Notes: a model not told the origin generated them from the sequence alone. 16,740 nucleotides of DNA from a virus (IMGVR_UViG_3300031867_000033:64344-81083), one strand, 5' to 3'. Positions 1 through 16,740 are shown, numbered from the stretch's first letter. Translations and numbers: made by a program.

Positions 1-1686
1 AAAATCTCCAACGTGTCCAAAATCCCTAATGCAAGCCTTAGCGAAGTTATCAACTAAAGTTTCCATCGGAGTCCCATAAAGACCTGCTGCAAGTCCAGTA
101 TCTACTTTAAATTTTGCATTTGAAGCATTTAAATAATCTAAAATCTTATGAGCAAGTTTATTGCCGTTTTCTTCAAACTGGCTTTCTCCTGTTATATACT
201 TCACACATTCATAAAGTCCAGCATAGCCTAAACTAATTGATGGTCTACCAGAGTATACTTCTTTTTCTAAAGTATCATTGGGGTCAAGTTTTGTTAAGCC
301 GCCATAAACCCAAAGTAAAGGAGACTGTCCTGCTCTTATTTTTGCGATATGATTAGCTCTCCAAAGCATATCTCTATGAGCAATATCTAAATAATAGTCT
401 AAGTTCTTAAATAGAATTTCTTCACTTCTTTCTTTATTATTTTCCATAGCTATATAAGGAAGATTAAGACTTTGTACACCAAGATTCCATCTTCCCCACA
501 ATTCATGTTGTCCATTCTCATTAATGTACTCATGAAGCAGACTGCGGCAACCCATCGGCGGTGTAGGAACGCCTTTAAGCTCACGATGAACCTTAACACT
601 GAGATAATCAGGAACTAACCTCTTTGCACTACATTCAGCACAAAGTTTAGTTATATCATAATATTTTCCGCCACGCATTGTATCTTCATCTAAGAAATAC
701 AATATCTTAGGGAAATTAGGATTTAAATAAGTACCATCTTTTTGCTTAATCCCTTGAATACGCTGCTTAATAAACTCTTTAAATACTAAGATTAAATCAT
801 CCGTATATTCAGGGTCTTCATTCAGCCAAGTAGATACTGAGAGAAATACAGCTTGTCCAGTGCCAGCACAAAGTGTATTGTTCTGAAAGAGGAAAGTCTA
901 CATACCGTCTTTGATTTCACTAGCCAATTCATCTTCTATAATTTGTTTTTTAATGCCTTCTGACAAATTGTATTTCTCAAATTTCTTTTCTATTTTCTTT
1001 CTAGAAACTCTTACAAATTTAGCTAAATGAAGTAGATTAACAGTTATACCGCCATACTGCTAAGAGGTAGCATGTGTAAGGATCTAAGTAGCTACTGTAC
1101 AAGCAGTACGAAAACTTTTGGGAGTCTCAATCCAAATACCGTTAATCTCACAACCAGCAAATAGAGTTTCAAGATCCAGCAAATCACAGTTATGCATTGG
1201 TCGTGCAGAGTACGCCATATCGTGAAAGTACACAACGCCCCTATCATGCGCATCAAGACAATCCGCCGGTAATTGTTCTCTCATAAATTGCCTACCAGGG
1301 ATCTCCGCTAAATAAGCATTTTTAATATGAGTTAAATCAGGATTTTTATTACCATTTTCTTGAGCAATATCAGGACTTACAAACAAAACTTTTTCAACTT
1401 CATTAGGATTTTTTCTAGCTTCTTCTTTCTTTATTCTATATTGAGAATAAATCCTTGCAACCGCTGGAGCTTCTCGATATAGAACGCTCATCACGCAATT
1501 TGCAACTGTTTCTACATCAATTCTATCATTCTTAGCTTTACTCCAAACTAAATCAGCAATTTCATCAACCATAAAATCAATTTCTTTAAAATCTGGAAAT
1601 TGAATTTGATTATATGCTGCAATTATTGCCCTTCTTACTTTATTATCATCATAAGGAAATTCTTTTCCCTTTTTTAATACTACCAT
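1..1686 (-). CDS. nrdD: Anaerobic (class III) ribonucleoside-triphosphate reductase with N-terminal ATP-cone; runs off the window; code 15
   Basis: RBS GAGGAGG before ATG at 1686. The frame stays open to base 1 if TAG=Gln (TAGs at 1084-1086, 1060-1062, 898-900). NrdD-type motifs: HDxGxxYFHD, VATQILTHATSQQYGG, PPMGCRS, GRWNLGVQSLNLP, SISLGYAGLYE, LYGTPME. Confidence 0.95.
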
Positions 1687-1719
1687 TAGTATCCCTCCTC
1701 GCTTTTCTATTCTATATTT

Positions 1720-1748
1720 AGTATATCATAAGTAAAAGAAAAAGTCAA
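1720..1748 (-). promoter_or_regulatory. sigma70/sigmaA-type promoter for nrdD (TTGACT-17-TATACT, extended -10 TG)
   Basis: -35 at 1743-1748, 17-bp spacer, -10 at 1720-1725. The -35 lies inside the hairpin arm at 1742-1750. Confidence 0.75.
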
Positions 1749-1765
1749 GATATTACTCTTGACTT
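1731..1765 (-). terminator. Intrinsic terminator overlapping the nrdD promoter
   Basis: Stem AAGTCAAGA/TCTTGACTT (1742-1750, 1757-1765) with a 6-nt loop, followed on the minus strand by TTTTCTTTT, just after the stop at 1791. Confidence 0.65.
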
Positions 1766-1790
1766 ATTCTTTTTTTATAGCAAAAACTTA

Positions 1791-2177
1791 TTAAAATTCT
1801 TCTTCCCAGGTCTTCATCTCATTTACTATCTACTTAATATAAGAGTTACCTTTTAACTTCTTATACTACTCAAATAAAGACAGAATATTTTCTTTCTCAT
1901 AATGAGGAATTTTTTTCTAATCCTTATACTTTATATATATATGAGTAATAGTGTTACGTATTAAAGCCTAGTCAGTAATATCGCTCTAATCTAATCTCTT
2001 CTCTATTTTATCAAGCTAAACTACTATTCCTTGATTCGCCGCCGTACTCTCATCTCTTATAGTTTTTCTAAACCATTCCTTGGGTTTCTTGGTTATAACC
2101 CCAACAAAAGTTATAATTGTTAAGATAACTCCAAGCACAGCCCCTATTGCCTCAACTATAGCTAAAATTCCCATCAT
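1791..2177 (-). CDS. Small membrane protein, putative holin-like family (N-terminal TM helix, C-terminal Y-x-x-L-x-G-N motif); code 15
   Basis: 128 aa MMGILAIVEAIGAVLGVILTIITFVGVITKKPKEW...LFEQYKKLKGNSYIKQIVNEMKTWEEEF. ATGA overlap with the upstream gene, GGGGTG RBS, 6 in-frame TAG, ends TAA. The holin assignment is by family resemblance only. Confidence 0.6.
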
Positions 2178-2578
2178 CTCACCCCTTTTTCTATAAGATT
2201 TATATTATGATTTGGTGTCTTAACAATAAACTCCGGTGTGTTAAAAATTTTCTAAAGGGTAAGATTTTCAAGTTCCCAATAAGGAATACGAATTAAGGAA
2301 ATTTTATTTTTAAGACAAAATTTATTTTTACGTATATCATACTCCTTCTGCCGGCGAAACGCAATAAGGGACTTATGGAAATATGGAACGTAGGTAAAAT
2401 GTTGACGCCCATCTAACTCTAGAAGAACCCAAAGCTAGCCATTACGGTAAATAGCGAAATCAAATCGTAAGTAATCTTTGCCTCCTTTTAATCCCTAAAA
2501 AGAAATTTCTTGTTTAAACTAAATGCCACCTCGCCTTAATAAATTCGCAACCTTAATCTCGCCCTTAGAATGCTTCAT
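2174..2578 (-). CDS. PD-(D/E)XK endonuclease, DUF559/Vsr-like; code 15
   Basis: 134 aa: HSKGEIKVANLL, LRFDFAI, LELDGRQH, YDIRKNKFCLKNKISLIRIPYW. TAATG overlap with the upstream gene; 4 in-frame TAG; ends TGA. Confidence 0.75.
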
Positions 2579-3357
2579 TACTAATCATCTCTTCGCCGCG
2601 GTGGTTTAGAAGGTTTTCTACAAGGCCCCTTAGGTATCGGAACTGGATAAACTGGAATTACTTGCTATGCCGGTACATGATAAGGCTTAACCTTTTGAGG
2701 TTCACAATGATAAGTAGATACATGAAGATAATCTTCATTCAGATTATCAAATGCTCCTCGAATAGCTGTAGTTTTATTGCGTTCAAAAAATTTACAATGT
2801 AGAGAAACTGAGAATGGTGTCGTGTTGATAACCTCTACGTCAGTTCTTTTGTTCTCTTCCAACTCAGTTCTCCAAGTAGCAAGAATTCCTTGAATGGTTT
2901 CAACTGAATCAGGTTTTAGTTCATACTAAACTCCATAATAAAGTTCTTTTCCTATTGAAACTTCAAACTTTTCAAATTCAGTTGAATAATTAAAAACAAA
3001 CATTACATAAAAATCCTCTATTTTATAAAGCAATTTAACCCTATTTTCACTAGAAAATTTTGCAGTTAAAAATTCTCCCACTATGGTCTAATCTTCTTTC
3101 TTCGGTACTATATTAACTTCCTATGGAAAGATTGAATTATCAGAAAAATCATATCCAGTAAATCCATCATCATTAAGAACTATTTCTCTATCTTCCTGCG
3201 GCGTACCTAGTACATTCTATATAAGTGTAGCAACTTTTCTATAATCATCCTAAAACTAACATACATCTCGTTTAGAACACTCCAAGCAGCGAATATCTAC
3301 TAGAGTATGAGAAGGATCTATTGCGATATTAATTGGGTTTAAATAAAGTCGGTCCAA
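2578..3357 (-). CDS. Hypothetical protein, 259 aa, with CxxC-x4-C near the N terminus and a Pro-rich basic tail; code 15
   Basis: RBS GAGGTG then TTG at 3357. Open to TAA at 2578 with 8 TAG read as Gln. Contains the track ORF 2665..2862 in frame. Confidence 0.72.
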
Positions 3358-3374
3358 GATATTCACCTCATTTT

Positions 3375-3409
3375 AAAAAAATAAAGAGGAAAATTTTTTC
3401 CTCTTTATT
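3375..3409 (-). terminator. Intrinsic terminator after the DNA ligase gene
   Basis: 13-bp stem AATAAAGAGGAAA/TTTCCTCTTTATT (3380-3409) followed by a T-run on the minus strand. Confidence 0.75.
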
Positions 3410-3442
3410 AAGTAGAATTTTTTTTAAGTTATATCTAAAGAC

Positions 3443-4564
3443 TTAGTTTGATTCTATCTGTGACCATTCACAATCTTCAGGTCGCTTATCGGTTCTCCTT
3501 TCTAAAATTTTACCATGACGAAGTGAATAGTGTCCTTCAATTTTTTCCACTTGCATTGCACTCAAAGCATAGACTTGTCCTACCCACTTATCTGGCTCTT
3601 GAACAATTCCTCTCTTCATCTCATCAGATACTCCACTAATATACGCTATATGTTCAGGCTTTCCATCTTTCATTACAGAAAAAGATAACGCACCGGCGTA
3701 GCCAAGATAAAATGGTTTAGTTACTGGAGTAATAGGAGCACCATCGGTATATTCAGCGAAATGATTCCCAATAGGCAATCTCTCTCCAGACTTTAGATTT
3801 ATATAATATTCCCAAGACTCCAAATTCTTTCCAGTATAATCACGTGTAGGCGGCTTATAATCTCCATCAAGAAATGCATCAATTGTATCAGTTAGCTCCT
3901 TCTTTAGTTTCAGAGATAGTCTAGCAGTCCTTTTTCCGCACGTGTATGGGGCAGTATTTTTCTGAATTACAATACCTTCTTGCCCCGCTGCAATAACATC
4001 AAGATAAAGTTCCCAAAGTTCTTCTCCTCTTTTATATTCCGCTACTTCAACTGGACCCTCAAACTTAATATTTTTTAAATACTCAATTCTCTTTTCAATA
4101 GCAGTATTTACAAGAACTTCTCCTGCCCAAGCTAGACAATCAAAACAATAAAAATGAAGAGGTGTACTAGCTTGTCTTTCCAGACTCTTGTCTTTTAAAC
4201 AATTAAGAATTGAAGTTGTTTTACGGCTTCCTTCATCTCCAAACTTATAGATTTCACCAAGAAGAACAGTTCCATTAGGAAGATATGAAAACTCTTCTGT
4301 AATAGACGGAATCCACTCAGCTTTATCTGCATAAGTTTTATTTACATTGGGAGTTCGGCTACGCAGATGAAAATTGCCAGTTTCATCTCGGATAATCATC
4401 GCCCATACACCATCAATTTTTCTCGAGCCTGTGTATTCTCCGCTCATTACCATATTTTTCGCTTCTTCACGCTTACGTTCTGTACTATAGGACTTAGGGT
4501 GTGTCCAATACTTCATTGCATTAAAAGAATCCCAAAAATCAATTCCTGAAATCACAATATTCAT
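3443..4564 (-). CDS. lig: ATP-dependent DNA ligase (373 aa)
   Basis: Nucleotidyltransferase motifs I (RKIDG), III (LGE), IIIa (FDCL), IV (QEGIVIQK), V (LKLK), plus a C-terminal OB-fold-like region ending LRHGKILERRTDK. No TAG; ends TAA. Confidence 0.9.
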   Translation of the reverse strand: MNIVISGIDFWDSFNAMKYWTHPKSYSTERKREEAKNMVMSGEYTGSRKIDGVWAMIIRDETGNFHLRSRTPNVNKTYADKAEWIPSITEEFSYLPNGTVLLGEIYKFGDEGSRKTTSILNCLKDKSLERQASTPLHFYCFDCLAWAGEVLVNTAIEKRIEYLKNIKFEGPVEVAEYKRGEELWELYLDVIAAGQEGIVIQKNTAPYTCGKRTARLSLKLKKELTDTIDAFLDGDYKPPTRDYTGKNLESWEYYINLKSGERLPIGNHFAEYTDGAPITPVTKPFYLGYAGALSFSVMKDGKPEHIAYISGVSDEMKRGIVQEPDKWVGQVYALSAMQVEKIEGHYSLRHGKILERRTDKRPEDCEWSQIESN

Positions 4565-4782: not shown

Positions 4783-4811
4783 ATTATATCAAAAATTATT
4801 TAAAAATGCAA
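4783..4811 (-). promoter_or_regulatory. Strong sigma70-type promoter (TTGCAT-17-TATAAT), class A repeat copy
   Basis: -35 at 4806-4811, -10 at 4783-4788. 4769-4817 matches the 49-bp promoter repeat at 10264/11390 with 4 mismatches. Confidence 0.85.
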
Positions 4812-4834
4812 ATATTTTATTAAAATTTTTAACT

Positions 4835-4913
4835 TACAATGCACCGCCTGTCCAAAAATTTGGACTCGCGGCGCGTTGTAAAAGAAAGCGCCACGGATGA
4901 TACCGCGGCGCAA
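4835..4913. repeat. Cluster of GC-rich GCGCCGC-motif copies forming two imperfect hairpins
   Basis: Inverted repeat TACAATGCACCGCCTGTCCA / TGGACTCGCGGCGCGTTGTA (4835-4880), then GCGCCACGG-ATGATA-CCGCGGCGC. The 18-mer GGATGATACCGCGGCGCA (4895-4912) is identical to 11577-11594. Confidence 0.65.
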
Positions 4914-4920
4914 TATAGAA

Positions 4921-5100
4921 TTAAAATTCTAGGTATCCAGCATTTATAGTAATTGCAGAATCGTTTTTCCTTTCAAATTCTTCCTTTGTAATAAACTCAA
5001 CTAAAGCTTCCGAAGGAATAACGATTTCATTTCCTCTTTGTTCGACACTCTCCGAAGTGATTCTAAAATATCTTCCTTCTGCTTCAAAACACAGTGTCAT
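4921..5100 (-). CDS. Hypothetical protein (59 aa), missed by the ORF track
   Basis: ATG directly follows the TAA of the GIY-YIG gene. MTLCFEAEGRYFRITSESVEQRGNEIVIPSEALVEFITKEEFERKNDSAITINAGYLEF; ends TAA. Confidence 0.6.
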   Translation of the reverse strand: MTLCFEAEGRYFRITSESVEQRGNEIVIPSEALVEFITKEEFERKNDSAITINAGYLEF

Positions 5101-6201
5101 TTAACTCCCTCCTTTGGTTCCATTATAACCCCAGTTCTAAGAATCATAGAACTCAATAAAATACTTTTCTTTTTCATTAAGCTCTTCTGGCTTACAAGTA
5201 GTAATAACTTCAAAAGTAAAATTCTCTGGCCCCGTCTCCCACATTTCCTCATATAACTTATTTCTAGTTGCTGGTTCTGCACGAACTCCTCTACGAACAT
5301 GAGCTCGCCATCTTTCAGAAAACTTTTGTTTAGTCTATCCAATATAGGACTTTCCATTTTGAATGTTCGTTATCTTATAAATTCCTACTCCTTGCGCATC
5401 TGTTGACACAACACGACCAATCATTTGAGAAAAAGGATTTTTATAATAATTCTCCCATATTAATTTATAAAGAATTGTTGGGGAATTTAATGTTTCTGCG
5501 ACTTTTCTTAATTTCTATATATCTTCCCTATCTTGTTCTTTAAGCTAAATTTTATAAAATTCCACTTGCTACTTCTTTTCCTCATCTGCTTTAAAACGAG
5601 CAATAATTTCTTTTTGTTTTTCCTCATAAGCTTTAATTTCTTTATCTAAAGCCTCCTTTTTTAAATTAATGCTCGTATTATAGTTAAAAAAATCTGTATC
5701 AAGTTCCTCCTTCTTCTCCTTATAATCTCCCTAAATTGCATTAAGAAAGCTCTAAAACCTAGCCTATTCCTCTAAAATTTTCGCCGTATTCTCTGCTTCT
5801 CTTTCACGTTGCGCCGCAGTATCAAGCTCCTTATAATGTTCAAGCCTTTCTTCAAACTATTCCTAAGATTGCTTAATTCGTGCATCAATAGTTCTTTGAA
5901 AATCTTTTTCCTACTAATTTAAAGCTTCAAGTTTTCTTTTTGTTTCTCCTTCTTCAAACTAAATCTATTCCTTTGCTGCAACTCTATAATTTTCAACTTC
6001 TTCTTCTATTTCTTCTTTTATTTCTTTTTCATATGCATTTTTCTTAGCTTTGATCTAACCCATAGCTTCAAGTTCAGCAATATTAAACTAATTAATATCA
6101 AACTAATGCTTTTTATGATAATGATCTGCAAGAGTCAAAATAATATTAACCGCTGAATAGATAAAGAGTAGAATATAGCTTATAATAAAAAATATATTCA
6201 T
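5101..6201 (-). CDS. Membrane-anchored coiled-coil protein with C-terminal GIY-YIG nuclease domain (366 aa); code 15
   Basis: GGAGG RBS; hydrophobic N terminus (NIFFIISYILLFIYSAVNIILTL); long E/K/Q-rich coiled coil; then GIYKITNIQNGKSYIGQT...ERWRAH...LNEKEKYFIEFYDSQNWGYN. About 17 in-frame TAG, including the Q of YIGQT. Confidence 0.85.
5809..5825 (+). repeat. Dispersed 17-bp motif copy (TTGCGCCGCAGTATCAA), intragenic
   Basis: Matches consensus YT(G/T)CGCCGC-NN-YAYCAW; lies inside the GIY-YIG gene. Confidence 0.7.
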
Positions 6202-6214: not shown

Positions 6215-6889
6215 TTATATATAATCTGTATAAATTTTCTGTCCACAACTACATTCAACATTTTTAACTAAACCCAATGAGTCACAATAAACTTCACAAA
6301 TAGGTTTATGTACATTATCATTATTATTTTGTATATGTTTTACAAAGCCCTCCATAATTTTTTGAACTTCTTCTGACGTAAACATATTATTAATTTTTCC
6401 ATTCAGTTTTCTATTTTGTTCTTTTAATTCCTCTATTTCTTTATTCTTTTGTTCAAATATTTTGTCATTAGTAAGCTCTTTTAATACTTCATTATCTTCA
6501 TTTATTTTACAAAAGCTTTCATACATATTAATTAAAAACTCAATTATATTAAAAAATTTTTTATCATTAGAAGAATAATTCCATATACCTTCATGTAAAT
6601 CTCTTTCGTTATTCTTGTATTTTGAAAGAATATTATTATATTTTTCTTGTCGTTCCTTTCTCCTATTTACATATTCTGGGTCTCTTTTTAATATTTTTTC
6701 CATAACACGTTTTCTAGCTTCTTTTTGATGTTGCGGCGGCAAAGTGTTTTCAATATTATTCAAAATTTCATTAATTTGTTCTTTCGGAATGTCAGCATAA
6801 TCATCAAACACAGAAAGTTTAGCTCTCATTCCTCTTACGGGGCTGCTTTCTTCTTCCTTTGTTAATCTCTCTAACACGTCTTGAGCCAT
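6215..6889 (-). CDS. Hypothetical protein (224 aa) with coiled coil and C-terminal Cys motif (CxCG)
   Basis: GGAGG 7 nt before ATG at 6889 (alternative start 6829). No TAG in 10 Gln codons; ends TAA. Confidence 0.72.
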   Translation of the reverse strand: MAQDVLERLTKEEESSPVRGMRAKLSVFDDYADIPKEQINEILNNIENTLPPQHQKEARKRVMEKILKRDPEYVNRRKERQEKYNNILSKYKNNERDLHEGIWNYSSNDKKFFNIIEFLINMYESFCKINEDNEVLKELTNDKIFEQKNKEIEELKEQNRKLNGKINNMFTSEEVQKIMEGFVKHIQNNNDNVHKPICEVYCDSLGLVKNVECSCGQKIYTDYI

Positions 6890-7376
6890 TATAATCCTCC
6901 CTCATTAATTCAAAAATTATTTCATCATGAATTTTCCCATCCATTAAAACTGCTTTTTGATGTAATATTCCTACTTCTTTACCACCATAATCTCTACAAA
7001 AATGTCTGTATCCTTCCAATATTGGATTATCACGATAGCACATCCATTCAATTCGATTAAGATTATATTTATTAAATATATCATCAATAGCCTTTAATAT
7101 ATCTCTTCCAAAAATAAGTGATGGTGCTGCGGCGCAACGAACAATATAGAATCCATTAACACTTCGGCTAATCCAATCTATTTCATACCCAAGACAACCA
7201 ACTATATTATCTTCTGAATCAACAGAAACAAATTGATGATTCCATCTATTATCATTAGGATATGGCTCGATCCTCATTCCAGTTCCGCTACAAGCTCGTT
7301 GAATGTCAATGTCATACTAATGTTCAAACCACCAATTATTAATTTCTTCCTCATAAAGTTTCGCATTCTTTAACAC
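6819..7376 (-). CDS. GNAT (RimJ/RimL-like) acetyltransferase, 185 aa; true start upstream of the track ORF (code 15)
   Basis: AAGGAGG RBS then GTG at 7376 (MLKNAKLYEEEI...). One TAG at 7317-7319. GNAT-like segments FVSVDSEDNIVGCLGY and DNPILEGYRHFCRDYGGKEVG...DGKIHDEIIFEL. Confidence 0.72.
7121..7137 (-). repeat. Dispersed 17-bp motif copy (TTGCGCCGCAGCACCAT), intragenic
   Basis: Matches consensus; lies inside the GNAT gene (encodes RCAAAPS). Confidence 0.7.
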
Positions 7377-8085
7377 TTATTACTTCCTCCTTCTTTGGAT
7401 AACGTCCACAACTATATTTCTCATTACAATAACCTAATCTCTGACATTTAGGAATTAGCATATGCTCTTCTTCAATTAACCAATACCATTCATCTGAATA
7501 AATCTTCAAAGCGTCAATAATCTCATGCATTAAGTCTCTATATTCGTGATAAGCACGAGTACATAATCTTTGCTCGCACATATTAATAAGTTCTCTAAGT
7601 CCAATTCTAACAATAACCTTAGTATTATAATTAAGTGGTAAGAGTCCACTAGCATCTTCTTTTGATATACCAAGCTCTTCCAACTTTTTTATAGACTCTT
7701 TAATATTATCCATTGCATCTAAATAAATCTTTTTCGCCGCCTCATTATCCATAATTGACTTAGGAGTAGTAAAATTAAAATCCCCATACTGAATATAACG
7801 AGTTGACGCTTGCAATCTTGTAACGGAGATAATATGGGTATAAAATTCACGAATACATTTAGCTGACCATCCATCGAGTATCATGTAAATTTGTGGATAT
7901 TCTAATGCTCGCCAATGTCCAGAACGATAGCACTCAATTCCTCTTTTAAAATTCTTCTCGTGGTCATTCACATCAGCATTCCAGCATGCTCCTGCAGCAT
8001 ATCCGCTTAATGTCAATGGTTCATCAGTTGTTTCCGAAAGTATTTGTATCTTACCTTTTATTTGATTCCAACGTCTAGCCAGCAT
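7351..8085 (-). CDS. thyX: Flavin-dependent thymidylate synthase ThyX
   Basis: GHWRALEY, REFYTH...RLQASTRY (variant of the RHRx7-8S signature region), LLPLNYNT, RELINMCEQRLCTRAYHEYR. No TAG. Confidence 0.9.
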   Translation of the reverse strand: MLARRWNQIKGKIQILSETTDEPLTLSGYAAGACWNADVNDHEKNFKRGIECYRSGHWRALEYPQIYMILDGWSAKCIREFYTHIISVTRLQASTRYIQYGDFNFTTPKSIMDNEAAKKIYLDAMDNIKESIKKLEELGISKEDASGLLPLNYNTKVIVRIGLRELINMCEQRLCTRAYHEYRDLMHEIIDALKIYSDEWYWLIEEEHMLIPKCQRLGYCNEKYSCGRYPKKEEVISVKECETL

Positions 8086-8420: not shown

Positions 8421-8993
8421 TTAAAATTCCTCCATTCCTTTAAAAAAAATTTCATCATCAATTAATCTTGGTACTTCTGTATAATCAACCGGGTAAAAAT
8501 CCCAAGTAGATAAGCTTAAATTCAGAATCTAATCTCTATAAATTTCGCCTTCTTTTAGAAGCTAATTCTCTATTGCAGCACTTTCTGCCATAGCAATATA
8601 ATTTCTTTCACCAAGCCAAAGCTAAATATTAGAAGAATTAGTTGCAATTATAACATTTGCTTTTTCTCCATTAATTGTTCCTACAACAAAACCATCAAGA
8701 GAACGCGCTCTCTAAGCTCCCATATCTTTCCAAAAATCTTCAATTTTATAAAGCGGCTAATCTTCTAAATCAACAATTTCCCATTTTGCTTTGATTTGAG
8801 ACATTAAACTTTTAGTTGATTCAAAATCACCAACACTTGTTTCCCCAAAAACTATTAAGTAGTCATCTTCTTCAACTATTAAATTAATTCTATCAATAAC
8901 CATTTGATTATATTCCTAAATTGTCATTTTCTAATGTTGCGCCGCGACACCATCAAACAATTTCATATCTGCCGCAATAAAAGTCTTATCCAA
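8421..8993 (-). CDS. Degenerate calcineurin-like metallophosphoesterase homolog (190 aa); code 15
   Basis: GGAGGGAGG RBS, TTG start. FIAADMKLF, EYNQMVIDRINLIVEEDDYLIVFGE and LNLSLSTWDFYPVDY follow the spacing of small phage phosphoesterases (xFTSDxH, EMNExLIxxWNxxVxxxDxVYxLGD, NVGVDxWxYxPV), but metal ligands are changed. 7 TAG; ends TAA. Confidence 0.65.
8937..8953 (+). repeat. Dispersed 17-bp motif copy (TTGCGCCGCGACACCAT), intragenic
   Basis: Matches consensus. 8941-8957 is also the exact reverse complement of 16582-16598 in the endolysin gene. Confidence 0.7.
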
Positions 8994-9075: not shown

Positions 9076-10017
9076 TTATCTCTCATTTAATATAGAACGA
9101 ATAATCTCCATTGTTATACTTCCAGAGAACTTTCCAAAACCTTCAATTGAAAAAACTGCCTCTGGCTCTTCCTTTCTTATGTCTTCAAATACAAGCTTTG
9201 GTATAGTCTTGCTTATCTCCTTCATATTAGTCTCATCCCAATCAATAGGAAGCTGACCCTCGTCAATAAGCTTTAATATAATCTTTTCTATACGCTGACG
9301 CGTCGCAAACTGAGCAACATAGGCTCTTGCTTCTTCTCTCTTCTTCAACTCTTCAGGGTCAATAGGCTTTTTAGCTCCTTTATGAACCTCTCCAAACTGC
9401 TCATTAACGATTTTTATATACTTAGGGCGGCGAGAATTCTCCTTATCTTCAAGTCTATCTTGCGTTTTGATGACAATTCCTTCCTCAGCTGGTTGCCCAC
9501 CAAGTGTCTTTAACTTCATAAGTTCCATTAAGTCTTCCCAAGAGTTAAACTTCCCATCATAAAGAACAGGAACGAAGTTTATTTCAATATTAAACTTTTC
9601 CGCCACTAAGAGTAGCTTCCCAAAAATTATCCAAGCATCGTGATAGGAAATATAGCATTCCTTCTCGCGATCGTAGACATCGAACATATAAAACTTATTA
9701 TACGCAGTATCTGGATACTTAACCGCGTGTGGAACTAGCCACTCACCGAACACAAGGTAGCGTCCAAATTCCGTAATCTCTTTTATATCTTCCAGAGAAA
9801 ACTTTTGTGTCCACTCCCAAAAACCACGAAGATTATTAGTTTCACTTAGTCTTGTCTTACGAGAAAAGGCAGCAATTGAATCCGTTTCTACGTCATAGGT
9901 AAAGCTCCCATTTGCGCCATCTAACTTGCTTTGCGCCACGATATGTTCACCAACATCAAACATCTCACTATATTTCGCCTTTAATCTGGATATATCAACG
10001 TAATGCTTCATTTCCAT
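9076..10017 (-). CDS. RNA ligase, Rnl2-like nucleotidyltransferase (313 aa)
   Basis: Motif I QSKLDGAN, FSRK, III FGEW, IIIa FDV, FVPVLYDG, IV EEGIVIK, V KIVNEQFGE, and a helical C-terminal domain. No TAG in 8 Gln codons. Confidence 0.85.
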   Translation of the reverse strand: MEMKHYVDISRLKAKYSEMFDVGEHIVAQSKLDGANGSFTYDVETDSIAAFSRKTRLSETNNLRGFWEWTQKFSLEDIKEITEFGRYLVFGEWLVPHAVKYPDTAYNKFYMFDVYDREKECYISYHDAWIIFGKLLLVAEKFNIEINFVPVLYDGKFNSWEDLMELMKLKTLGGQPAEEGIVIKTQDRLEDKENSRRPKYIKIVNEQFGEVHKGAKKPIDPEELKKREEARAYVAQFATRQRIEKIILKLIDEGQLPIDWDETNMKEISKTIPKLVFEDIRKEEPEAVFSIEGFGKFSGSITMEIIRSILNER

Positions 10018-10031: not shown

Positions 10032-10244
10032 TTATATTAACTTGCCTTCAAACTCACATTTACAGGTTATACTATCAACATTAGTTGGATAATGCCAATC
10101 ATCAATAACTCTTCCACAACAAGGACATTTATAATAATTGCAGCAGTCTTTATCACTGTAGCCTAATGGAATCCAAGTCATATTCTTTTCAAAATCTTTA
10201 AGATAGGCTTTATCTTTATATCGTTTTGTATGAATATAAAACAT
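10032..10244 (-). CDS. Small Cys-rich (zinc-ribbon-like) protein (70 aa)
   Basis: YKCPCCG...ITCKCE; GAAAGG RBS; first gene after the class A promoter. Confidence 0.7.
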   Translation of the reverse strand: MFYIHTKRYKDKAYLKDFEKNMTWIPLGYSDKDCCNYYKCPCCGRVIDDWHYPTNVDSITCKCEFEGKLI

Positions 10245-10263: not shown

Positions 10264-10312
10264 TATTTTCTATAATAATTATATAATAAATTTTTTAAAA
10301 TTGCAAATATTT
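10264..10312 (-). repeat. 49-bp promoter repeat, copy 1 (TTGCAA-17-TATAAT plus leader TATTATAGAAAATA)
   Basis: Base-for-base identical to 11390-11438. -35 at 10301-10306, -10 at 10278-10283. Confidence 0.9.
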
Positions 10313-10332
10313 AAAAGATTTTTAAATCTACG

Positions 10333-10374
10333 TTGCGCCGCCATATCATAAACCTTGCTTCGCCGCACCATCAA
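10333..10374 (+). repeat. Tandem pair of GC-rich motif copies (TTGCGCCGCCATATCAT at 10333-10349; CTTCGCCGCACCATCAA at 10358-10374)
   Basis: Same 25-bp spacing and arrangement as the pair at 11444-11460 / 11469-11485. Confidence 0.75.
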
Positions 10375-10462
10375 CCTTAGCCTGTACTACGATATGCTCG
10401 CCCACATCAAACATTTCATTATACTTAGCCTTAAGTCTTGATATATCTACATATTTATTCAT
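10346..10462 (-). pseudogene. Truncated 5' copy of the RNA ligase gene (38 aa)
   Basis: GAAAGGAG RBS; MNKYVDISRLKAKYNEMFDVGEHIVVQAKVDGAAKQGL. 26/30 residues identical to the ligase N terminus (YVDISRLKAKYSEMFDVGEHIVAQSKLDGA); homology ends just after motif I. Confidence 0.85.
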
Positions 10463-10844: not shown

Positions 10845-11372
10845 TTAAATTCTATTCATTAAATCACAACATTTTTCTTTAGTTTCAATTCTATATTCCT
10901 CTTTAAAAAGAGAATCAATAATATTATTTACTTCTTCGTGAGACTTCTTAAAAATAGCGACGAATAAAGGAAATAAGTCTCTTATATCACTAAAAAGACA
11001 ATAATATTCTCCATTATAAGAGAATGAAGAAGTATAACCTATTTGTTCAAATAAAAACGTCCAACCATTTGGACTAATACCAGCTCCTTCTTCGTTTAAT
11101 ATTTGGTTTTTAAGATATGTTAAAGAATGATTATTCTTTTCTCGTTCCTCAATCGCCCTATCCATATTATCAAAATCTTCTTTTGTTGAAGAACGAACAA
11201 ATTCCAACTGATTATCATGCCACCAAGCACTAGTTCCACCACTTTTAAGGAAACGAAGTTCATAGCCAGAAGAAACTTCGATAATTACAGCAAGTTGTCC
11301 TATACTAGGATCTGTCTTTTCATTCCAAAAACCTTTAATTACTTTTACGACATCTCCCATTTTATATTTCAT
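10845..11372 (-). CDS. Hypothetical protein with N-terminal SH3/KOW-like beta segment (about 175 aa)
   Basis: Likely start MKYKMGDVVKV at 11372 after the AGAAGGT RBS (track start 11390 is in frame); no TAG. Confidence 0.72.
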   Translation of the reverse strand: MKYKMGDVVKVIKGFWNEKTDPSIGQLAVIIEVSSGYELRFLKSGGTSAWWHDNQLEFVRSSTKEDFDNMDRAIEEREKNNHSLTYLKNQILNEEGAGISPNGWTFLFEQIGYTSSFSYNGEYYCLFSDIRDLFPLFVAIFKKSHEEVNNIIDSLFKEEYRIETKEKCCDLMNRI

Positions 11373-11389
11373 TATATTACCTTCTTTCA

Positions 11390-11438
11390 TATTTTCTATA
11401 ATAATTATATAATAAATTTTTTAAAATTGCAAATATTT
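11390..11438 (-). promoter_or_regulatory. 49-bp promoter repeat, copy 2 (TTGCAA-17-TATAAT)
   Basis: -35 at 11427-11432, -10 at 11404-11409; identical to 10264-10312. Confidence 0.9.
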
Positions 11439-11443: not shown

Positions 11444-11595
11444 CTGCGCCGCGGTACCATAAGACTTACTTCGCCGCGCTACCAAACTTTTAGACACATC
11501 TATTAGAAATTCTACATTAAGAAAATTTCAAAGGGCGCCGGCACATTATAGATAAAGCATCATAAAATAAAGGTATGGATGATACCGCGGCGCAT
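11444..11595. repeat. 152-bp element bounded by inverted copies of the GC-rich motif, at the divergent transcription point
   Basis: TGCGCCGCGGTACCAT (11445-11460) and ATGATACCGCGGCGCA (11579-11594) are reverse complements at 15/16 positions. Internal partial copies at 11469-11485 and near 11535. Confidence 0.75.
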
Positions 11596-11716
11596 TGTAG
11601 ATTTTAAACAAAATTTTAAAAGTAAATTTGTTTAAAACGTAGATTTTCTTTTTCTTATTAATTTTCTTTTAAAATAAAACTTTTAAATTCCCAACTTTAA
11701 AAACGAGGTGATTAAA

Positions 11717-11944
11717 ATGTATAGTTATAAAGAGTATAATGAACCAATTCAAATTTTAATTAAGTTAATGCATAGAGATTATCCTAATGGATTTGAGTTA
11801 AGAATCAATGGATTTGGTGCAGAATTGGTTAATAATCAAATGGTTCATACTTATATGAATGATGAAATAATGAAAGAATATTGTAGTGGTGGAAACTTAT
11901 CAATGGAAGAAATAATGAGTAATTTAAAAGATATGGGTTATTAA
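11717..11944 (+). CDS. Hypothetical protein, paralog 1 of a tandem pair (75 aa)
   Basis: GAGGTG RBS then ATG at 11717; 24/40 N-terminal residues identical to the next gene. Confidence 0.8.
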   Translation: MYSYKEYNEPIQILIKLMHRDYPNGFELRINGFGAELVNNQMVHTYMNDEIMKEYCSGGNLSMEEIMSNLKDMGY

Positions 11945-11981
11945 ATATTTTAAATCTTAGTTTAAAATGAGGCGATGTGTA

Positions 11982-12206
11982 ATGCATACATATGAAGAAT
12001 ATAATAAACCAATTCAAGAACTTATTAAAATTATGGAAAATGACTATCCTCATGATTTTATATTAGAGATAGGTAGTTTTGGAGCGGAATTAAAATCAAA
12101 TATTAGCGTTAGAACTTTTTTAAAAGATAATAATAGATTAGAGAATAATATAGATTGGATTGGACTTTTAAAAAAGGTTTTCAATGAGAATGAGAAAGAC
12201 AGTTGA
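11982..12206 (+). CDS. Hypothetical protein, paralog 2 of a tandem pair (74 aa)
   Basis: GAGG RBS then ATG at 11982; MHTYEEYNKPIQELIKIMENDYPHDFILEIGSFGAEL. Confidence 0.8.
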   Translation: MHTYEEYNKPIQELIKIMENDYPHDFILEIGSFGAELKSNISVRTFLKDNNRLENNIDWIGLLKKVFNENEKDS

Positions 12207-12331: not shown

Positions 12332-13126
12332 TCACTGATAATAGAAATAATTTTGGTTGCCATCTCCCCACCAAGAGTTAGCTTCATCGAAATCATAAGG
12401 ATTAGCCAAATAATAATTAACTGCATCATAACATTCCTGCGTAGGTGCACAATTTCCCGGCCAATAACCAGTAAACTGTCCAGGTGCAATCAATACATCA
12501 TAAACCGTATTCGGGAATCTTGAGTCGTAAACTCTATTCATTACTGCGGCAGCAATATGAGCCTTATCATAAAGACTAATCCAGTCACTTCCAGCTTCAT
12601 GCCAAACTATTTCTGCAAGCAACTGGTATGAATAATTATCAATTTCAATATTTGGGTTTTCATCAATAAATTCTGTAGTGGTTGTTGTCTCTTCAATTGG
12701 TTTTTCTACGACAATCCAGGATGATGTCTCTTCTATATCACTCACAGGTGCATCAATCTTTATCTGAGAAGTAATTGCCTCTGAAGCTTTTGTAGTAGTA
12801 GTTATGGTAGGATCTATATTAGAACTATCAACATCAATGTTAGTTTCAACAGGAATTTTATAAGTATTGTCTCCCTTTTTATCCTCAATCGAAATTAAAT
12901 TCTCTACTGAACTAGTCTCTATTATAAGTTCAAATGAAGTATCATCTGATATACTAGATTCATCTATATTTGTATTTGAACTTTCCACCTCCGTTGTGGC
13001 TTCTATTATAGAATTTAAGGGTGATACAGAACTAGTGCTTCTATGATATGTCGCTGGTTTAGTTCCACAACTTACAAGTGCCGTGGCACAGAATAGAGAT
13101 AAAAATATAGTCTTTAAATTCTTCAT
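12332..13126 (-). CDS. Lipoprotein with Ser/Thr/Glu-rich linker and C-terminal SleB-like cell-wall hydrolase (Hydrolase_2) domain
   Basis: Signal peptide with lipobox LVSC (Cys20); LLAEIVWHEAG, AAAVMNRV, FPNTVYDVLIAPGQF. No TAG. Confidence 0.85.
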   Translation of the reverse strand: MKNLKTIFLSLFCATALVSCGTKPATYHRSTSSVSPLNSIIEATTEVESSNTNIDESSISDDTSFELIIETSSVENLISIEDKKGDNTYKIPVETNIDVDSSNIDPTITTTTKASEAITSQIKIDAPVSDIEETSSWIVVEKPIEETTTTTEFIDENPNIEIDNYSYQLLAEIVWHEAGSDWISLYDKAHIAAAVMNRVYDSRFPNTVYDVLIAPGQFTGYWPGNCAPTQECYDAVNYYLANPYDFDEANSWWGDGNQNYFYYQ

Positions 13127-13131
13127 TGGAA

Positions 13132-13602
13132 TTATTCCTCCTTAATACTAAATAATAAAATTAATAAAGTTCCATTCTAATAATAAGCTAAATACCCATT
13201 AATATTAAATAATCTTACTGGAAAGAAATTACAAACAATTTCATAATCTTCATCTATACAGCTTTCTTTAATTTGCTCTTTAATTTCTTCCTAATTAAAA
13301 TTAAGTCTTCCAACCTAATTACTAATAATTGCTAATGCTCTATTAAAAACATTAAATGGTTCTGTTAAAGCAATTGATTTCATAAATTCAATAATAGGAC
13401 AATTTGCGGCAGATAAACGTGCTTTACAATCCCAACCCCTTTTCTTAATGTTTAAATCTTTCATTACTTGTCCATAAAGAAAATCTTTTGCTCCATAACT
13501 TAAATTAATCCATTGTGGACAAGTCTCCTCTAAATACTAATGAAAAGGTTTAAGAATTTCAATTTTTATCTCTTCATCCTAATAAATAATATAAGTCTCC
13601 AT
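13132..13602 (-). CDS. Hypothetical protein (156 aa); code 15
   Basis: TAATG coupling to the helicase stop. METYIIYQDEEIKIEILKPF...LLILLFSIKEE; 5 TAG; ends TAA. Confidence 0.7.
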
Positions 13603-14714
13603 TAGAATTCAATTAACTCCCCATAAGCTCGTTCAATTTGTCTATTAATCTTAAAGTTCCTATTTGGCTCTTTAAGTTTCCCTTCTTCTTTCTTTAAGGC
13701 TGGACACCACCAAAGATTTGTTTCAGCTCTTGTTGCAGCGACATAAGCAATCCTTCTTTCTTCTTTATTATAAGTTAACGCACCAACGACAATTACATTA
13801 GGTGATTCAAGACCTTTTGCCTAATGAATAGTCATAACTTTAACTGTATTTTCTGCCATTAAACCTTCCATTTCTTCGATACTAAGCTCTGAACGTTTAA
13901 AAGTCGTATTGGGAATTTCTTTTTCTTTAAGCATTTCCATTATTGAATAGACGTCTCTATTAGTTCTAGCTATAATAAACCAAGAACCCCAGTTACCAGA
14001 GACTTCTAATTCTTCAAGAGCCTCTGGAAATCTACAACGTTCAATGAGACCATTCTTTGTTTTTCTTGGAATTGTTTTAGGACTTAAAGGTTCTGTTCCA
14101 TTTAGAAAACCCTCTGCAAAGTCGACTATCTCAGGAGTATTACGATAATTTTCTACAAGGAAATATTTTGTATAAGTTGGGTCTTCATACATCTCTCTTA
14201 AATATTTATCAGTGGCCCCTTTAAAGCCGTAAATTGCTTGTCGATCATCTCCTGTCCAATACTCATTATTCTTCGATAGATAAGTTAAAAAGTTAAATTC
14301 CAAATCACCTAAATCCTGACACTCATCAATGAATAAATAAGAAATGGGTTTTAGTTTATCCCTAGGAATCGTCATTGCTCGTTCAATAATTCTATCAAAC
14401 TTCTCTTCTCTTATATACTATTCTGTATCAAGTCCATTAAAAGTACAAAGCTTATTAGCATAAGAATGAATCGTTCCAATAAACGCTTTTTCTCCTAGCT
14501 TTCCCAATCTAGAATACATCTCACTTGCTGCCTAATTGGTGAACGTAATGGCCACTATATCCTCGGGTTTACACCAGCCCTATTCTATTACATAACGAAT
14601 TCTTTCGGTAAGTACTCTACTTTTTCCTGCCGCAGCACAAGCTAGGCATAGGATTCGTGAATTTTGTGCTTGTACGACTTTCTTCTAACGTATGTTTAGA
14701 TTTATTTCACTCAT
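13602..14714 (-). CDS. Compact UvrD/Rep/PcrA-like superfamily 1A helicase (370 aa); code 15
   Basis: AGGAGG RBS; Q motif LNIRQ (Q=TAG, codon 10), Walker A ACAAAGKS, AITFTNQAASEM, GTIHS, Walker B IDECQD, GDDRQAIYGFKGA, LVENYRN, MTIHQAKGLE, YVAATRA. 5 TAG. Confidence 0.92.
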
Positions 14715-14760
14715 TTACAATCCTCCTAATTTTTAATATAACATTTTCATTTATAATATT

Positions 14761-14789
14761 ATTATATCAAAAAATTTAAGGGAAATCAA
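14761..14789 (-). promoter_or_regulatory. sigma70-type promoter (TTGATT-17-TATAAT, extended -10 TG) with -35 inside a hairpin
   Basis: -35 at 14784-14789, -10 at 14761-14766. Confidence 0.75.
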
Positions 14790-14806
14790 ATATTTTGACT
14801 TCCCTT
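14769..14806 (-). terminator. Probable terminator hairpin overlapping the helicase promoter
   Basis: AAGGGAA-A-TCAAA-TAT-TTTGA-C-TTCCCTT (14778-14806) starting at the upstream TAA. The T-run is offset by AAA, so it may be weak. Confidence 0.5.
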
Positions 14807-15156
14807 TACTCTATATTTAAATATTTTTTTAATTCTTCAATCTCACTAACATTTTCATCGTCATTAATAAAAATTACTACGTCTGTAACGTCAATTACAT
14901 TTTTATAAGTCTAATATTGTTCCATAGTAATCGCATAATGCTCTTTATCCTTTTCTCCAATATGAAGATAGATAGTTCTTTTATTAGACTTCATTTCTCC
15001 AGAATTAACCTATAATGTTATTGGATAAAACTTATTATTATTAGATATTATTGGACTTGTTTCTTTTATTGCTTCTTCGTTATTTTCATAAAGATTTTTA
15101 AAATTAACGATCTATCCAGAAGTATTTAAATCAACCGTATAAATTATCGTCGCCAT
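14806..15156 (-). CDS. Hypothetical protein (116 aa); code 15
   Basis: AAGAGG RBS; MATIIYTVDLNTSGQIVNF...; 3 TAG; ends TAA. Confidence 0.7.
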
Positions 15157-15484
15157 TTTCTTCCTCTTTCTTCACTTTATCTAATGCATAAATTGTATAA
15201 CGACTAAATACTTCCTTTAATGCATCGAACCCTTTCATGGAAACAAAAGCAATTATAAATCCAAATAAAACGCCAGTTATAATTGGTCCTAAAGTCGGTC
15301 CCTAAGTTGCTACTGTGGCTCCTACTGTTAAAAATAAAGAAACAAAAACAGTTAAAACCTAAGTCGGAAATTCCTTTGGTAATATTGCCTTAAGAACTTC
15401 TGTTATAATTGTAGTTAATGCCGCAAGAATTCCTAAGTCAGTTAAAGAAATTCCAGCTGTTAATCCCAGTAATCCTTCTATCAT
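15131..15484 (-). CDS. Putative holin (three hydrophobic segments, charged C-terminal tail; 117 aa); code 15
   Basis: GAGGTGAGG RBS; LGILAALTTIITEVLK, PTQVLTVFVSLFLTVGA, IITGVLFGFIIAFVSMKGFDALKE; 2 TAG; downstream of the endolysin. Confidence 0.68.
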
Positions 15485-15489
15485 TAACC

Positions 15490-16296
15490 TCACCTCTCTT
15501 TAAATCGAAAGTCGATATTTAATATATTAATATTATAAGGAATCTATAAATAAGAATTTCTCCACTACAGTGCGCCGCGACCCTATAACGTTGGTCTAAA
15601 CTCCATTATATAATCCTCGGAGTTAAATTCAAATTGGAATCCATCTATCTCTCCAAATGGTAAACCGGCACATTGTCCATTAGAGGCCCAGGCTGACCAG
15701 GCTTGATTTTTATTATGAACTCGATAAGTAATATTTCCAATATTTGTTTTTAATTTTATTCTATTAAAACTATGAATAGAATCCGGAAGCTACCAACTTC
15801 CATTAATTAAAACTTCAATCTCAATCTTTGGCTGAATTTTCTTTTTAACTTCGGGCATTTCAAAAGCAACTTTCTCTATTTTTTGCTTATCTGCCTTTTC
15901 AAAAAGTTTTTGCTAGAAACTTTCTGAAACTCTATAAAAGAAAATTCTATTCTGAGCAATATTAAACTTTTTTGCTAAGGCAATAATTAAAGAAATTGCT
16001 TTCTTTTCTACTCCTTTTCTAGTTCCACAAATTCCAATCTTTAAAACCTTATGATATGACGGTATAGCCTCCCATATTGATAAATGGTCAACGTAATAAT
16101 CAATAGTTAAAGGTTCCATTAAACCTAAAGTCTGTTGCCTCATCATATACTCTGCTAATGTTGTATTTGATTTAACAATTAAATCGGGCAACTAGTAAAT
16201 ATATAAATTAAAAGGAGCCGACCCTTGCGGCTCCCTCCCATTAACCTAATATATAGGAAAACCGAGGTCTTTATTAATTATTGCACGAAGTGGCAT
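15490..16296 (-). CDS. Degenerate amidase_2-like domain fused to a ChW-like cell-wall-binding segment (268 aa); code 15
   Basis: TAATG overlap with the endolysin stop. DYYVDHLSIWEAIP...KIGICG...AISLIIALAKKFNIAQNRIFFY mirrors amidase_2 spacing without the Zn-binding His residues. ITYRVHNKNQAWSAWASNGQCAG...IDGFQ resembles a ChW repeat. 7 TAG; ends TGA. Confidence 0.62.
16206..16234 (-). terminator. Terminator-like hairpin inside the 15490..16296 reading frame
   Basis: GGAGCCG-CAAGGGT-CGGCTCC (16234-16214) followed by TTTTAATTT. Confidence 0.6.
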
Positions 16297-16740
16297 TATT
16301 TTACGTAATATTCTCCATCAGAAGTTTTAAATAAGCACCACCCTGAGGGAATTTTTCCCCAGACTTCCCCATTAGTTAATTCCTTAACTTCCAAAACTGA
16401 AACCTTGGTTCCTTTCTTAAGAACTGCTTTGGACTAGTTATAAGAATTAGCCTTTGCATTTTCAGTTAACTAGCTCCTAGACTTCCAAGAATATGATGTG
16501 CCAGCACCTGAACGAACCTTAAGGTCTACCTAAAGTGTATAGACTTTGCCAATAGTATAGATTGATTTCTTAGTAGAAGTATTTGATGGTGTCGCGGCAC
16601 TTTGTGAAGGAACAGTTTCAGCTTTAATTTCTTCCTTAGTCTCAGTTTTAGCTTCTTCCTTAGTTTCCTCCTTATTTAAAGTAGGAATTGAATAAAAGTA
16701 GTTCATGTCTACTCCACTACTAATTGAATTTAACTTATAA
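16296..16740 (-). CDS. Endolysin C-terminal part (end of a probable GH25 domain, linker, SH3-like cell-wall-binding domain); 5' end outside the window; code 15
   Basis: ISSGVDMNYF resembles the end of a GH25 domain; an E/K/T/S linker follows; then YTLQVDLKVRSGAGTSY...VLKKGTKVSVLE...WGKIPSGWC. 3 TAG in the visible part; ends TAA. Confidence 0.78.

Follow-up and report, generated by a model that had tools for sequence, protein, structure and literature searches.

The window, the whole stretch of 16,740 nucleotides analysed here, is the final 16.7 kb of an 81-kb phage contig from IMG/VR with a CheckV completeness of ~49%; the contig ends at window position 16740. The phage is large, uncultured and low in GC (31-32%). 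A standard gene finder cuts about half of its genes into fragments, as TAG stands for Gln in these. With TAG taken as Gln, genes are closely packed along the minus strand, and most starts are preceded by AGGAGG-type ribosome-binding sites. The following features are distinguished under this reading.

1-1686, minus strand: NrdD (anaerobic ribonucleotide reductase), 562 aa from the N-terminus, with the remainder beyond the left window edge; a single continuous Pfam NRDD match (2.1e-86, aa 110-556) takes in all three TAGs
1084-1086, 1060-1062 and 898-900, minus strand: in-frame TAGs of NrdD at aa 201 (VATq), aa 209 (TSqQYGG) and aa 263 (DGMqTF)
1791-2177, minus strand: 128-aa protein, 6 TAGs; phrog_4105 (1.6e-11)
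2174-2578, minus strand: 134-aa homing-endonuclease-like nuclease domain, 4 TAGs; phrog_559 (2.1e-22) and phrog_9084 (4.3e-18)
2578-3366, minus strand: 262-aa protein, 8 TAGs; its final sense codon is TAG, directly followed by TAA
3443-4564, minus strand: ATP-dependent DNA ligase, TAG-free; Pfam DNA_ligase_A_M (5.2e-18)
4783-4815, minus strand: promoter-family copy upstream of a TAG-free gene block
5101-6201, minus strand: protein of 366 aa, GIY-YIG nuclease domain at its C-terminus (Pfam GIY-YIG, 6e-07, aa 273-360), 17 TAGs, the most of any window gene; the match spans the TAGs at aa 289 and 355
5335-5337, minus strand: TAG at aa 289 (YIGqT) of the GIY-YIG nuclease
6819-7376, minus strand: 185-aa protein, one TAG (7317-7319), GTG start after AAGGAGG; phrog_30343 (7.4e-38, aa 1-162) takes in the N-terminus and the TAG; 152 aa under code 11
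7351-8085, minus strand: ThyX (flavin-dependent thymidylate synthase), TAG-free; Pfam Thy1 (8.4e-35)
8421-8993, minus strand: 190-aa protein, 7 TAGs; weak match to a phosphoesterase PHROG
9076-10017, minus strand: RNA ligase, TAG-free; Pfam RNA_ligase (9.1e-21)
10278-10310, minus strand: promoter-family copy upstream of the TAG-free gene 10032-10244
11404-11436, minus strand: promoter-family copy upstream of the TAG-free gene 10845-11390
12332-13126, minus strand: SleB-type cell-wall hydrolase, TAG-free, with a signal or lipoprotein-like N-terminus; Pfam Hydrolase_2 (2.1e-08)
13132-13602, minus strand: 156-aa protein, 5 TAGs, two of them kept in frame in the relative L011
13602-14714, minus strand: UvrD/PcrA-like SF1 helicase, 370 aa, 5 TAGs; Pfam UvrD-helicase (1.9e-30) and UvrD_C (3.2e-18)
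14685-14687 (aa 10, LNIRq), 14580-14582, 14532-14534, 14418-14420 and 13821-13823 (aa 298, TIHqAKGLE), minus strand: TAGs of the UvrD-like helicase
14806-15156, minus strand: 116-aa protein, 3 TAGs
15131-15493, minus strand: 120-aa hydrophobic membrane-type protein, 2 TAGs; phrog_18218 (3.6e-09)
15490-16296, minus strand: 268-aa protein, 7 TAGs, all seven kept in frame in L011
16296-16706, minus strand: 136-aa protein, 3 TAGs; weak SH3_3 match

The most TAG-rich genes are homing endonucleases. The product of 15131-15493 is possibly lysis-related, judged only by its position; in relatives a CHAP/GH25 endolysin lies upstream of UvrD, and a PHROG search gave no confirmation of a lysis role for 15131-16706.

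In total, 71 in-frame TAGs are present in 13 of the 27 window genes (48%), so the statement of the earlier note that about half the genes are hidden is correct, while in-frame TAA or TGA does not occur in those 13 genes. The close packing described there is likewise found, with one-base TAATG junctions at 2578, 8085, 13602 and 16296 and four-base ATGA overlaps at 2174-2177 and 15490-15493. TAG-free genes account for 42% of the window and the curated gene set with TAG as Gln for 92%, and the share of the minus strand that lies in stop-to-stop frames of at least 60 aa grows from 67% to 92% with TAG as sense. The proposed comparison of translation tables 11 and 15 gave the predicted gain over the whole contig, from a density of 0.67 (code 11) to 0.85 with the strand bias kept, and the median ORF length increased from 91 to 132 aa. 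The gain is specific to TAG: recoding TGA gave a density of 0.70, almost no gain, and recoding TAA reached 0.84 only via new ORFs on both strands. TAG is present in 39% of the contig ORFs. The earlier note had also stated that no complete gene ends at TAG; as TAG had already been read as sense, this wording is circular. What stands is that in-frame TAGs, 206 over the whole contig, are distributed evenly along the genes, with no pile-up at the 3' ends, and that all 138 called ORFs terminate in TAA (113) or TGA (25).

In NrdD, the UvrD-like helicase and the GIY-YIG nuclease, Pfam and PDB matches are not interrupted at the TAGs, and the phrog_30343 match likewise spans its TAG. In a codon-by-codon comparison with L011 (82% nucleotide identity), 10 TAGs are kept in frame; in protein alignments the number is 35 for L057 and 51 for L060. 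Downstream of the first TAG in UvrD, the changes relative to L011 are distributed 30/16/129 over the three codon positions, corresponding to 118 synonymous and 29 non-synonymous codon changes. Judged by this dominance of third-position changes, the sequence downstream of TAGs is under protein-coding selection. A 153-kb relative shows the same pattern, its density rising from 0.60 to 0.87 with TAG recoded.

All motifs named in the earlier note (LNIRQ, TIHQAKGLE, YIGQT, VATQ, SQQYGG and DGMQTF) contain an in-frame TAG on the minus strand. That these lie at Gln columns was confirmed for the UvrD Q motif, where 112 of 120 homologues carry Gln, and for NrdD aa 201 and aa 263, which are Q in the solved structures of T4 NrdD and 9d3x. 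At aa 209, the first Q of SQQYGG, solved NrdD structures have S or H rather than Gln. L011 has no TAG in UvrD and carries CAG or CAA at all five of its TAG positions, and the product (P0001) translates under table 11. Against L057, 32 aligned TAG columns lack TAG there, and 19 of these are Gln (16 CAA, 3 CAG). CAA is two base changes away from TAG. In likelihood comparisons over the aligned TAG columns, Gln ranked first for each of L011, L057, L058 and L060, with a lead of 14 to 43 log units, and in the pooled comparison with the 153-kb relative it exceeded Glu by 11.3 units over 118 columns. TAG-containing genes are specifically depleted in CAG (0.35% vs 0.95%, Fisher p = 1e-9). A point against the assignment is that, with TAG counted as Gln, their Gln content would be about twice that of TAG-free genes (4.3% vs 2.1%). 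CAG/CAA and TAG seem to interchange freely once suppression works. Taken together, comparative sequence evidence shows TAG to be a sense codon that stands for Gln, an assignment supported by four independent lines, namely conserved Gln columns, codon exchange with relatives, likelihood, and the Gln-type tRNA(CUA) genes of relatives.

As had been noted before, the window contains no tRNA gene, suppressors included; a phage suppressor tRNA(CUA) is common among code 15 phages, though some lack it. ARAGORN finds a candidate with a CUA anticodon at G000:53442-53518, 10.8 kb upstream of the window. It is intergenic, lies on the coding strand with a copy of the promoter family upstream, pairs U1 with A72, has its CCA encoded in the DNA, directly adjoins a GIY-YIG homing endonuclease gene, and occupies the slot of the tRNA island that is used by the tRNA(CUA) of relatives; in 300 locally shuffled copies of the contig ARAGORN made no calls. 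The Rfam tRNA model does not report it even at E <= 10, its T-arm is non-canonical, the T-stem being mismatched (G53-U61, C55), and the relatives have no homologue that can be aligned with it. It may be a degenerate copy or a tRNA-like RNA of another kind, and as about half of the genome is missing, the true decoder may lie elsewhere. Among the relatives, the tRNA(CUA) genes of G001:C1 (62 bits) and L060 (60 bits) are of the Gln type, the former closely resembling its own tRNA-Gln(UUG), and both have the GCCAAG..AAGGCA D-arm and the U1-A72 pair of tRNA-Gln. Amber suppressors of the supE type are tRNA-Gln with a CUA anticodon (E. coli glnV44), and these two genes likewise look like tRNA-Gln with a changed anticodon. 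The tRNA(CUA) of L057, an ARAGORN call below the Rfam gathering score with an 8-bp acceptor stem, shares its slot just upstream of the Ala/Asn/Glu tRNAs with that of L060. In contrast to the supE type, L057 and the contig candidate have bodies unlike the Gln-type suppressors of L060 and G001. We infer that the decoder is a phage tRNA(CUA).

Other explanations for the in-frame TAGs were weighed against this assignment. TAG could still be a stop, with the TAG genes broken or split in a decaying or defective phage, since code 11 does fragment them, NrdD being in four pieces in some public calls on relatives. Gene decay would not, however, confine in-frame stops to TAG at all 71 window and 206 contig sites, keep them in frame across relatives, let third-position changes dominate downstream, or recur in the 153-kb relative; it is contradicted by these observations and its probability is practically negligible. 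A sense reading other than Gln, with Glu or Lys as the likeliest amino acids, draws on the distant relative (50% amino-acid identity), for which, taken alone, the contig's TAG columns are ambiguous between Glu and Gln with a slight lead of 3.3 log units for Glu, on K, E and D being common partners of TAG columns, and on the local tRNA(CUA) candidate which, like that of L057, lacks a Gln-type body and so leaves room for a non-Gln amino acid. Yet K, E and D are the usual replacements for Gln at variable surface positions, Gln leads for each of the four closer relatives, the commonest exchange is with CAA despite the two base changes, and TAG is found at the invariant Gln of the Q motif and at two conserved Gln columns of NrdD. 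A Glu or Lys reading is thus very improbable.

Just as little credit can be given to low-efficiency readthrough by near-cognate tRNAs or a suppressor of the host in place of a dedicated phage tRNA, by which the TAG genes would be expressed at a low level rather than late. The poor performance of the contig candidate on the tRNA covariance model would fit such leakiness. So would the outcome of the search for RF2 and GlnRS genes proposed in the earlier note, as the 81 kb, roughly half of the genome, yielded no RF-1, PCRF or tRNA-synt_1c domain; these genes are optional for code 15 phages, and the incompleteness of the contig weakens any argument from absence. On the other side, leaky readthrough of 17 TAGs in a single 366-codon gene would yield almost no full-length product, and relatives have clear tRNA(CUA) genes in the conserved slot.

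Hence, we consider it very probable that this large, low-GC, uncultured phage decodes UAG as glutamine (genetic code 15) and that its genes fall into two classes. TAG-free genes, which include those for DNA ligase, ThyX, RNA ligase, the cell-wall hydrolase and many small genes, would be translatable from the start of infection by the standard machinery of the host, which presumably uses the standard code. TAG-containing genes, comprising NrdD, the UvrD-like helicase, the homing-endonuclease-type nucleases and the block 13132-16706, would give full-length protein only after the phage tRNA with the anticodon CUA outcompetes release factor 1. The two classes may differ in the timing of their expression. 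A promoter family of host type, ATATTTG[ACT]A[AT]-N17-TATAAT, has 17 copies, all on the coding strand, and mostly precedes TAG-free genes (13 of 15 cases, p = 0.024). Against a timing model count the variant of the same family in front of the TAG-containing UvrD gene and the presence of NrdD and a helicase in the TAG class, both being atypical for late genes. The contig, about half a genome, yielded no identifiable structural genes.

The same island slot holds three unrelated tRNA(CUA) bodies (L060, L057 and the contig) in a group of relatives with 85-94% identity to the contig in the Ro60-like protein. It is conceivable, if rather unlikely, that the decoder turns over quickly. Should all three bodies be functional, suppressor tRNAs would be exchanged as cassettes, with homing nucleases as possible agents, and a recoded phage recorded as suppressor-less may simply have a suppressor that is not recognisable. 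As a separate point, the TAG-richness of the homing nucleases would suggest selfish elements tuned to the recoded state.

The reading of TAG as Gln is real here but, as the earlier note rightly held, established biology and already well described for gut phages with code 15. Metaproteomics has demonstrated it for crAss-like phages (Peters et al., PMC9523058), and TAG-recoded gut phages include crAss-like, Lak, Garnet, Amethyst and other clades with 26-71% TAG genes per clade (Borges et al., bioRxiv 10.1101/2021.08.26.457843). As in those phages, GC is low, only some of the genes contain TAG as a sense codon, the lineage has suppressor tRNA(CUA) genes, and TAG exchanges with CAG/CAA over short evolutionary distances. 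The heavy recoding of a homing endonuclease resembles that of a group I intron endonuclease in the TGA-recoded Agate phages, whereas replication genes mostly use the standard code in that study (Borges et al.) and NrdD, NrdG and UvrD-like genes carry TAGs here. The present phage also belongs to a separate lineage, its best GenBank phage helicase match being only 29.6% identical (Clostridium phage Amboise). phAss-1 and the proposed Phassvirus group are likewise large gut phages (~136 kb) in which many typical phage ORFs contain in-frame TAG and which encode several suppressor tRNAs, and their description, too, stresses the practical need to pick the right translation table (Babkin et al., PMC10607447); searches of the phage collection with the window DNA and the helicase protein gave no close match that would indicate kinship. 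In a public protein collection, genes of the relatives are already translated with TAG=Q, and full-length gene calls are present for a 98-kb contig of the same phage.

The window forms the right end (64344-81083) of a linear IMG/VR virus contig of 81,083 bp, which is ~49% complete according to CheckV, has a GC content of 31-32% and carries nearly all of its genes on the minus strand. If TAG is read as a sense codon, the window is tiled by 27 genes, most of which start behind a strong ribosome-binding site of the AGGAGG type; TAATG and ATGA gene junctions are present, and 71 in-frame TAGs fall into 13 of the genes. Coverage of the window is 42% for genes without TAG and 92% for the gene set with TAG as Gln. 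Hence, with 13 of 27 genes containing TAG, the estimate of the earlier note that about half of the genes are hidden under the standard code is accurate.

Every motif that the earlier note had named in NrdD, the UvrD-like helicase and the GIY-YIG nuclease indeed holds an in-frame TAG.

In-frame TAGs in the named motifs (window positions; q, TAG read as Gln)
898-900, NrdD, DGMqTF
1060-1062, NrdD, TSqQYGG
1084-1086, NrdD, VATq
5335-5337, GIY-YIG nuclease, YIGqT
13821-13823, UvrD-like helicase, TIHqAKGLE
14685-14687, UvrD-like helicase, LNIRq

Pfam and PDB matches continue unbroken over the TAGs. In the comparison with L011, a Logan contig of a closer relative with 82% DNA identity over 4 kb, the differences 3' of the first TAG lie mainly at third codon positions; for UvrD, 30, 16 and 129 changes were counted at the first, second and third positions, and of the changed codons 118 are synonymous and 29 non-synonymous. 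Ten TAGs are kept in frame in L011 in a codon-by-codon comparison, and protein alignments show 35 conserved in L057 and 51 in L060, two further contigs of closer relatives. On the whole contig, the 206 in-frame TAGs are evenly distributed along the genes, and therefore TAG is not a true stop behind which the reading frame has been falsely prolonged by a short stretch. All ORFs of the contig end with TAA (113) or TGA (25).

The coding density of the whole contig was determined by greedy ORF tiling under the standard bacterial code (code 11) and with each stop codon recoded.

Coding density and median ORF length
Code 11: density 0.67, median ORF 91 aa
TAG recoded: density 0.85, median ORF 132 aa, strand bias retained
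TGA recoded: density 0.70, median ORF 94.5 aa
TAA recoded: density 0.84, median ORF 115 aa, ORFs on both strands

The gain anticipated for TAG as a sense codon was thus obtained with the strand bias intact. Recoding of TGA brought no real gain over code 11, and that of TAA increased the density solely through spurious ORFs across both strands, which is an artefact expected of AT-rich DNA.

To assign the amino acid, ORFs of the contig were aligned to each relative after X had been put in place of TAG, and every amino acid was scored by the substitution pattern of these same alignments. Gln came first against each of four closer relatives (L011, L057, L058 and L060), with a lead of 14 to 43 log units, and TAG is most often paired with CAA, a codon two base changes away. 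With the distant 153-kb relative (G001:C1, 50% amino-acid identity) a pooled two-way comparison favoured Gln by 11.3 units, while the TAG columns of the contig alone were ambiguous, with Glu 3.3 units ahead. The UvrD gene of L011 contains no TAG, has CAG or CAA at all 5 positions and can be translated with table 11. Among homologues, the expected Gln was found in the Q-motif column of UvrD (112 of 120 sequences) and in the columns of NrdD aa201 and aa263 (T4 NrdD and 9d3x); it was not found at NrdD aa209, where the column holds S or H and the position is therefore variable. Genes with TAG are specifically poor in CAG. A Gln compensation test, which asks for a constant CAA+CAG+TAG content between the gene classes, was of no help in identifying the amino acid, as the total was 2.1% in TAG-free and 4.3% in TAG-containing genes. 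Taken together, the observation that TAG is a sense codon in the window is confirmed and its interpretation as Gln is supported.

In agreement with the earlier note, no tRNA was found in the window. Of the 11 tRNAs that ARAGORN detects on the contig, which cluster at 42.2-42.8 kb and at 50.7-54.4 kb, one is a candidate with a CUA anticodon.

CUA candidate and split tRNA genes on the contig (G000:C1)
53442-53518, minus (coding) strand, tRNA(CUA) candidate called by ARAGORN
54060-54182, minus strand, tRNA gene interrupted in the anticodon loop
54454-54578, minus strand, tRNA gene interrupted in the anticodon loop

The candidate is intergenic, directly adjoined by a GIY-YIG homing endonuclease gene (G000:52440-53396), and shows a U1-A72 pair, the canonical U8, A14, G18G19 and U33, and an encoded CCA. 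The T-arm is of poor quality, and even at E <= 10 no match to the Rfam tRNA model is reported. Since ARAGORN called nothing in 300 copies of the contig after local shuffling, the candidate is a real tRNA-like element. Homologues were found neither by a 19-mer search of viral contigs nor by a metagenome scan, which gave five chance matches on unrelated contigs; a 29-mer search of viral contigs for the tRNA-Ile likewise returned nothing. Relatives do encode a tRNA(CUA): that of the 153-kb relative scores 62 bits and is a near-copy of its own tRNA-Gln(UUG), that of L060 scores 60 bits and is of the Gln type, and that of L057, an ARAGORN call with an 8-bp acceptor stem under the Rfam gathering score, differs from the one in L060. 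According to flank alignments, those of L057 and L060 occupy the slot of the candidate, just upstream of the Ala, Asn and Glu tRNAs. A single slot among close relatives holds three unrelated tRNA(CUA) bodies, the one on the contig being the candidate missed by the standard covariance model.

A hidden, intron-split suppressor was also considered, and none of the split tRNAs of the island, a Thr(UGU) and a Gln-like one (G000:54454-54578), yields CUA. The latter has U1-A72 and G73; after splicing, its anticodon is UUG or UUA, according to where the junction is placed. The inserts of ~46-50 nt each fold like the top half of a tRNA (a 7-bp stem and a T-arm) with CCA at the end. For a Gln-like remnant at ~G000:53915-54048 no tRNA fold was obtained by eye. 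The search for release factor and GlnRS genes advised by the earlier note found none in the 81 kb of the contig, from which about half of the genome is absent.

TAG-containing genes of the window encode NrdD, the UvrD-like helicase, the GIY-YIG protein (17 TAGs), a homing-endonuclease-like nuclease domain and phrog_30343 (6819-7376, GTG start and a single TAG, the PHROG match covering the N-terminus); several genes without assigned function, including the block 13132-16706, also contain TAG. On the rest of the contig, genes of HNH and GIY-YIG homing endonucleases are richest in TAG (10, 10, 16, 10 and 5 TAGs), and TAGs are present in TnpB and NrdG. NAMPT, PRPP synthase, the RNA ligases, PNK, a phosphatase and a Ro60-like protein are TAG-free. 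Genes without TAG make greater use of Lys, Glu and Gln codons that end in G and, with TAG counted as Gln, contain about half the Gln of TAG-containing genes, a trend between the classes that recurs in the 153-kb relative. No structural genes were identified on the contig. For 15131-16706, synteny with a relative's CHAP/GH25 endolysin is the sole basis of a proposed lysis module, which found no confirmation in PHROGs. This endolysin and a cell-wall hydrolase of the window point to a probably Gram-positive host.

A conserved sigma-70-like promoter family of host type, ATATTTG[ACT]A[AT]-N17-TATAAT, whose -10 element often has a TG extension, is represented by 17 copies. All of them lie between genes on the coding strand, 12-57 nt upstream of a gene start or a tRNA; 14 are on the contig outside the window.

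Promoter-family copies in the window (coding strand)
4783-4815, copy of the family
10278-10310, copy of the family
11404-11436, copy of the family
near 14745-14796, variant before UvrD

Two copies precede tRNAs, and the nearest gene downstream lacks TAG in 13 of 15 cases (p = 0.024). This association agrees in part, and only modestly, with the model of Borges et al. (bioRxiv 10.1101/2021.08.26.457843), in which the early phase belongs to standard-code genes and tRNAs and the translation of recoded genes follows. The same study describes genomes with only part of the genes (26-71%) recoded, strong recoding of a homing endonuclease, and close relatives differing in code.

As the earlier note stated, TAG-to-Gln recoding in gut phages is already established (Borges et al.), with metaproteomic proof for crAss-like phages (Peters et al., PMC9523058) and a further case of TAG recoding in phAss-1 (Babkin et al., PMC10607447); the mechanism itself is known and not novel. 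The right end of the window had no DNA match among GenBank phages, a protein search gave only distant helicases, and an IMG/VR search for related loci with the helicase returned no relatives. The lineage has many metagenomic relatives of 150-190 kb and no close GenBank phage. A public protein collection already contains genes of the relatives translated with TAG as Q, and the genes of a 98-kb contig of the same phage called at full length. The phage is present in the samples ENA ERZ27256863 and SRA SRR9036512. One further lineage joins the known TAG-recoded phages, and the main value lies in correct annotation: the default bacterial code truncates or misses about half of the window genes, including NrdD, the helicase and several nucleases, and functional or taxonomic work on the lineage must use code 15.

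Some further features of the window were observed. The gene at 2578-3366 ends with ...DD-TAG-TAA, its final sense codon TAG (2581-2583) abutting TAA, and either codon could terminate the protein. The only convincing plus-strand genes are two tandem, TAG-free paralogues of 78 and 79 aa (11708-11944 and 11967-12206), which share the pattern ..Y.EYN.PIQ.LIK.M..DYP..F.L.I..FGAEL. Upstream of the RNA ligase region lies a short ORF (10264-10462), at the place of which a 38-aa gene is called on the 98-kb ENA contig. A dispersed GC-rich motif with the core CCGCGGCGCA stands out from the AT-rich DNA at 4895-4926, 7119-7150 and 11577-11608, with both intergenic and intragenic copies.
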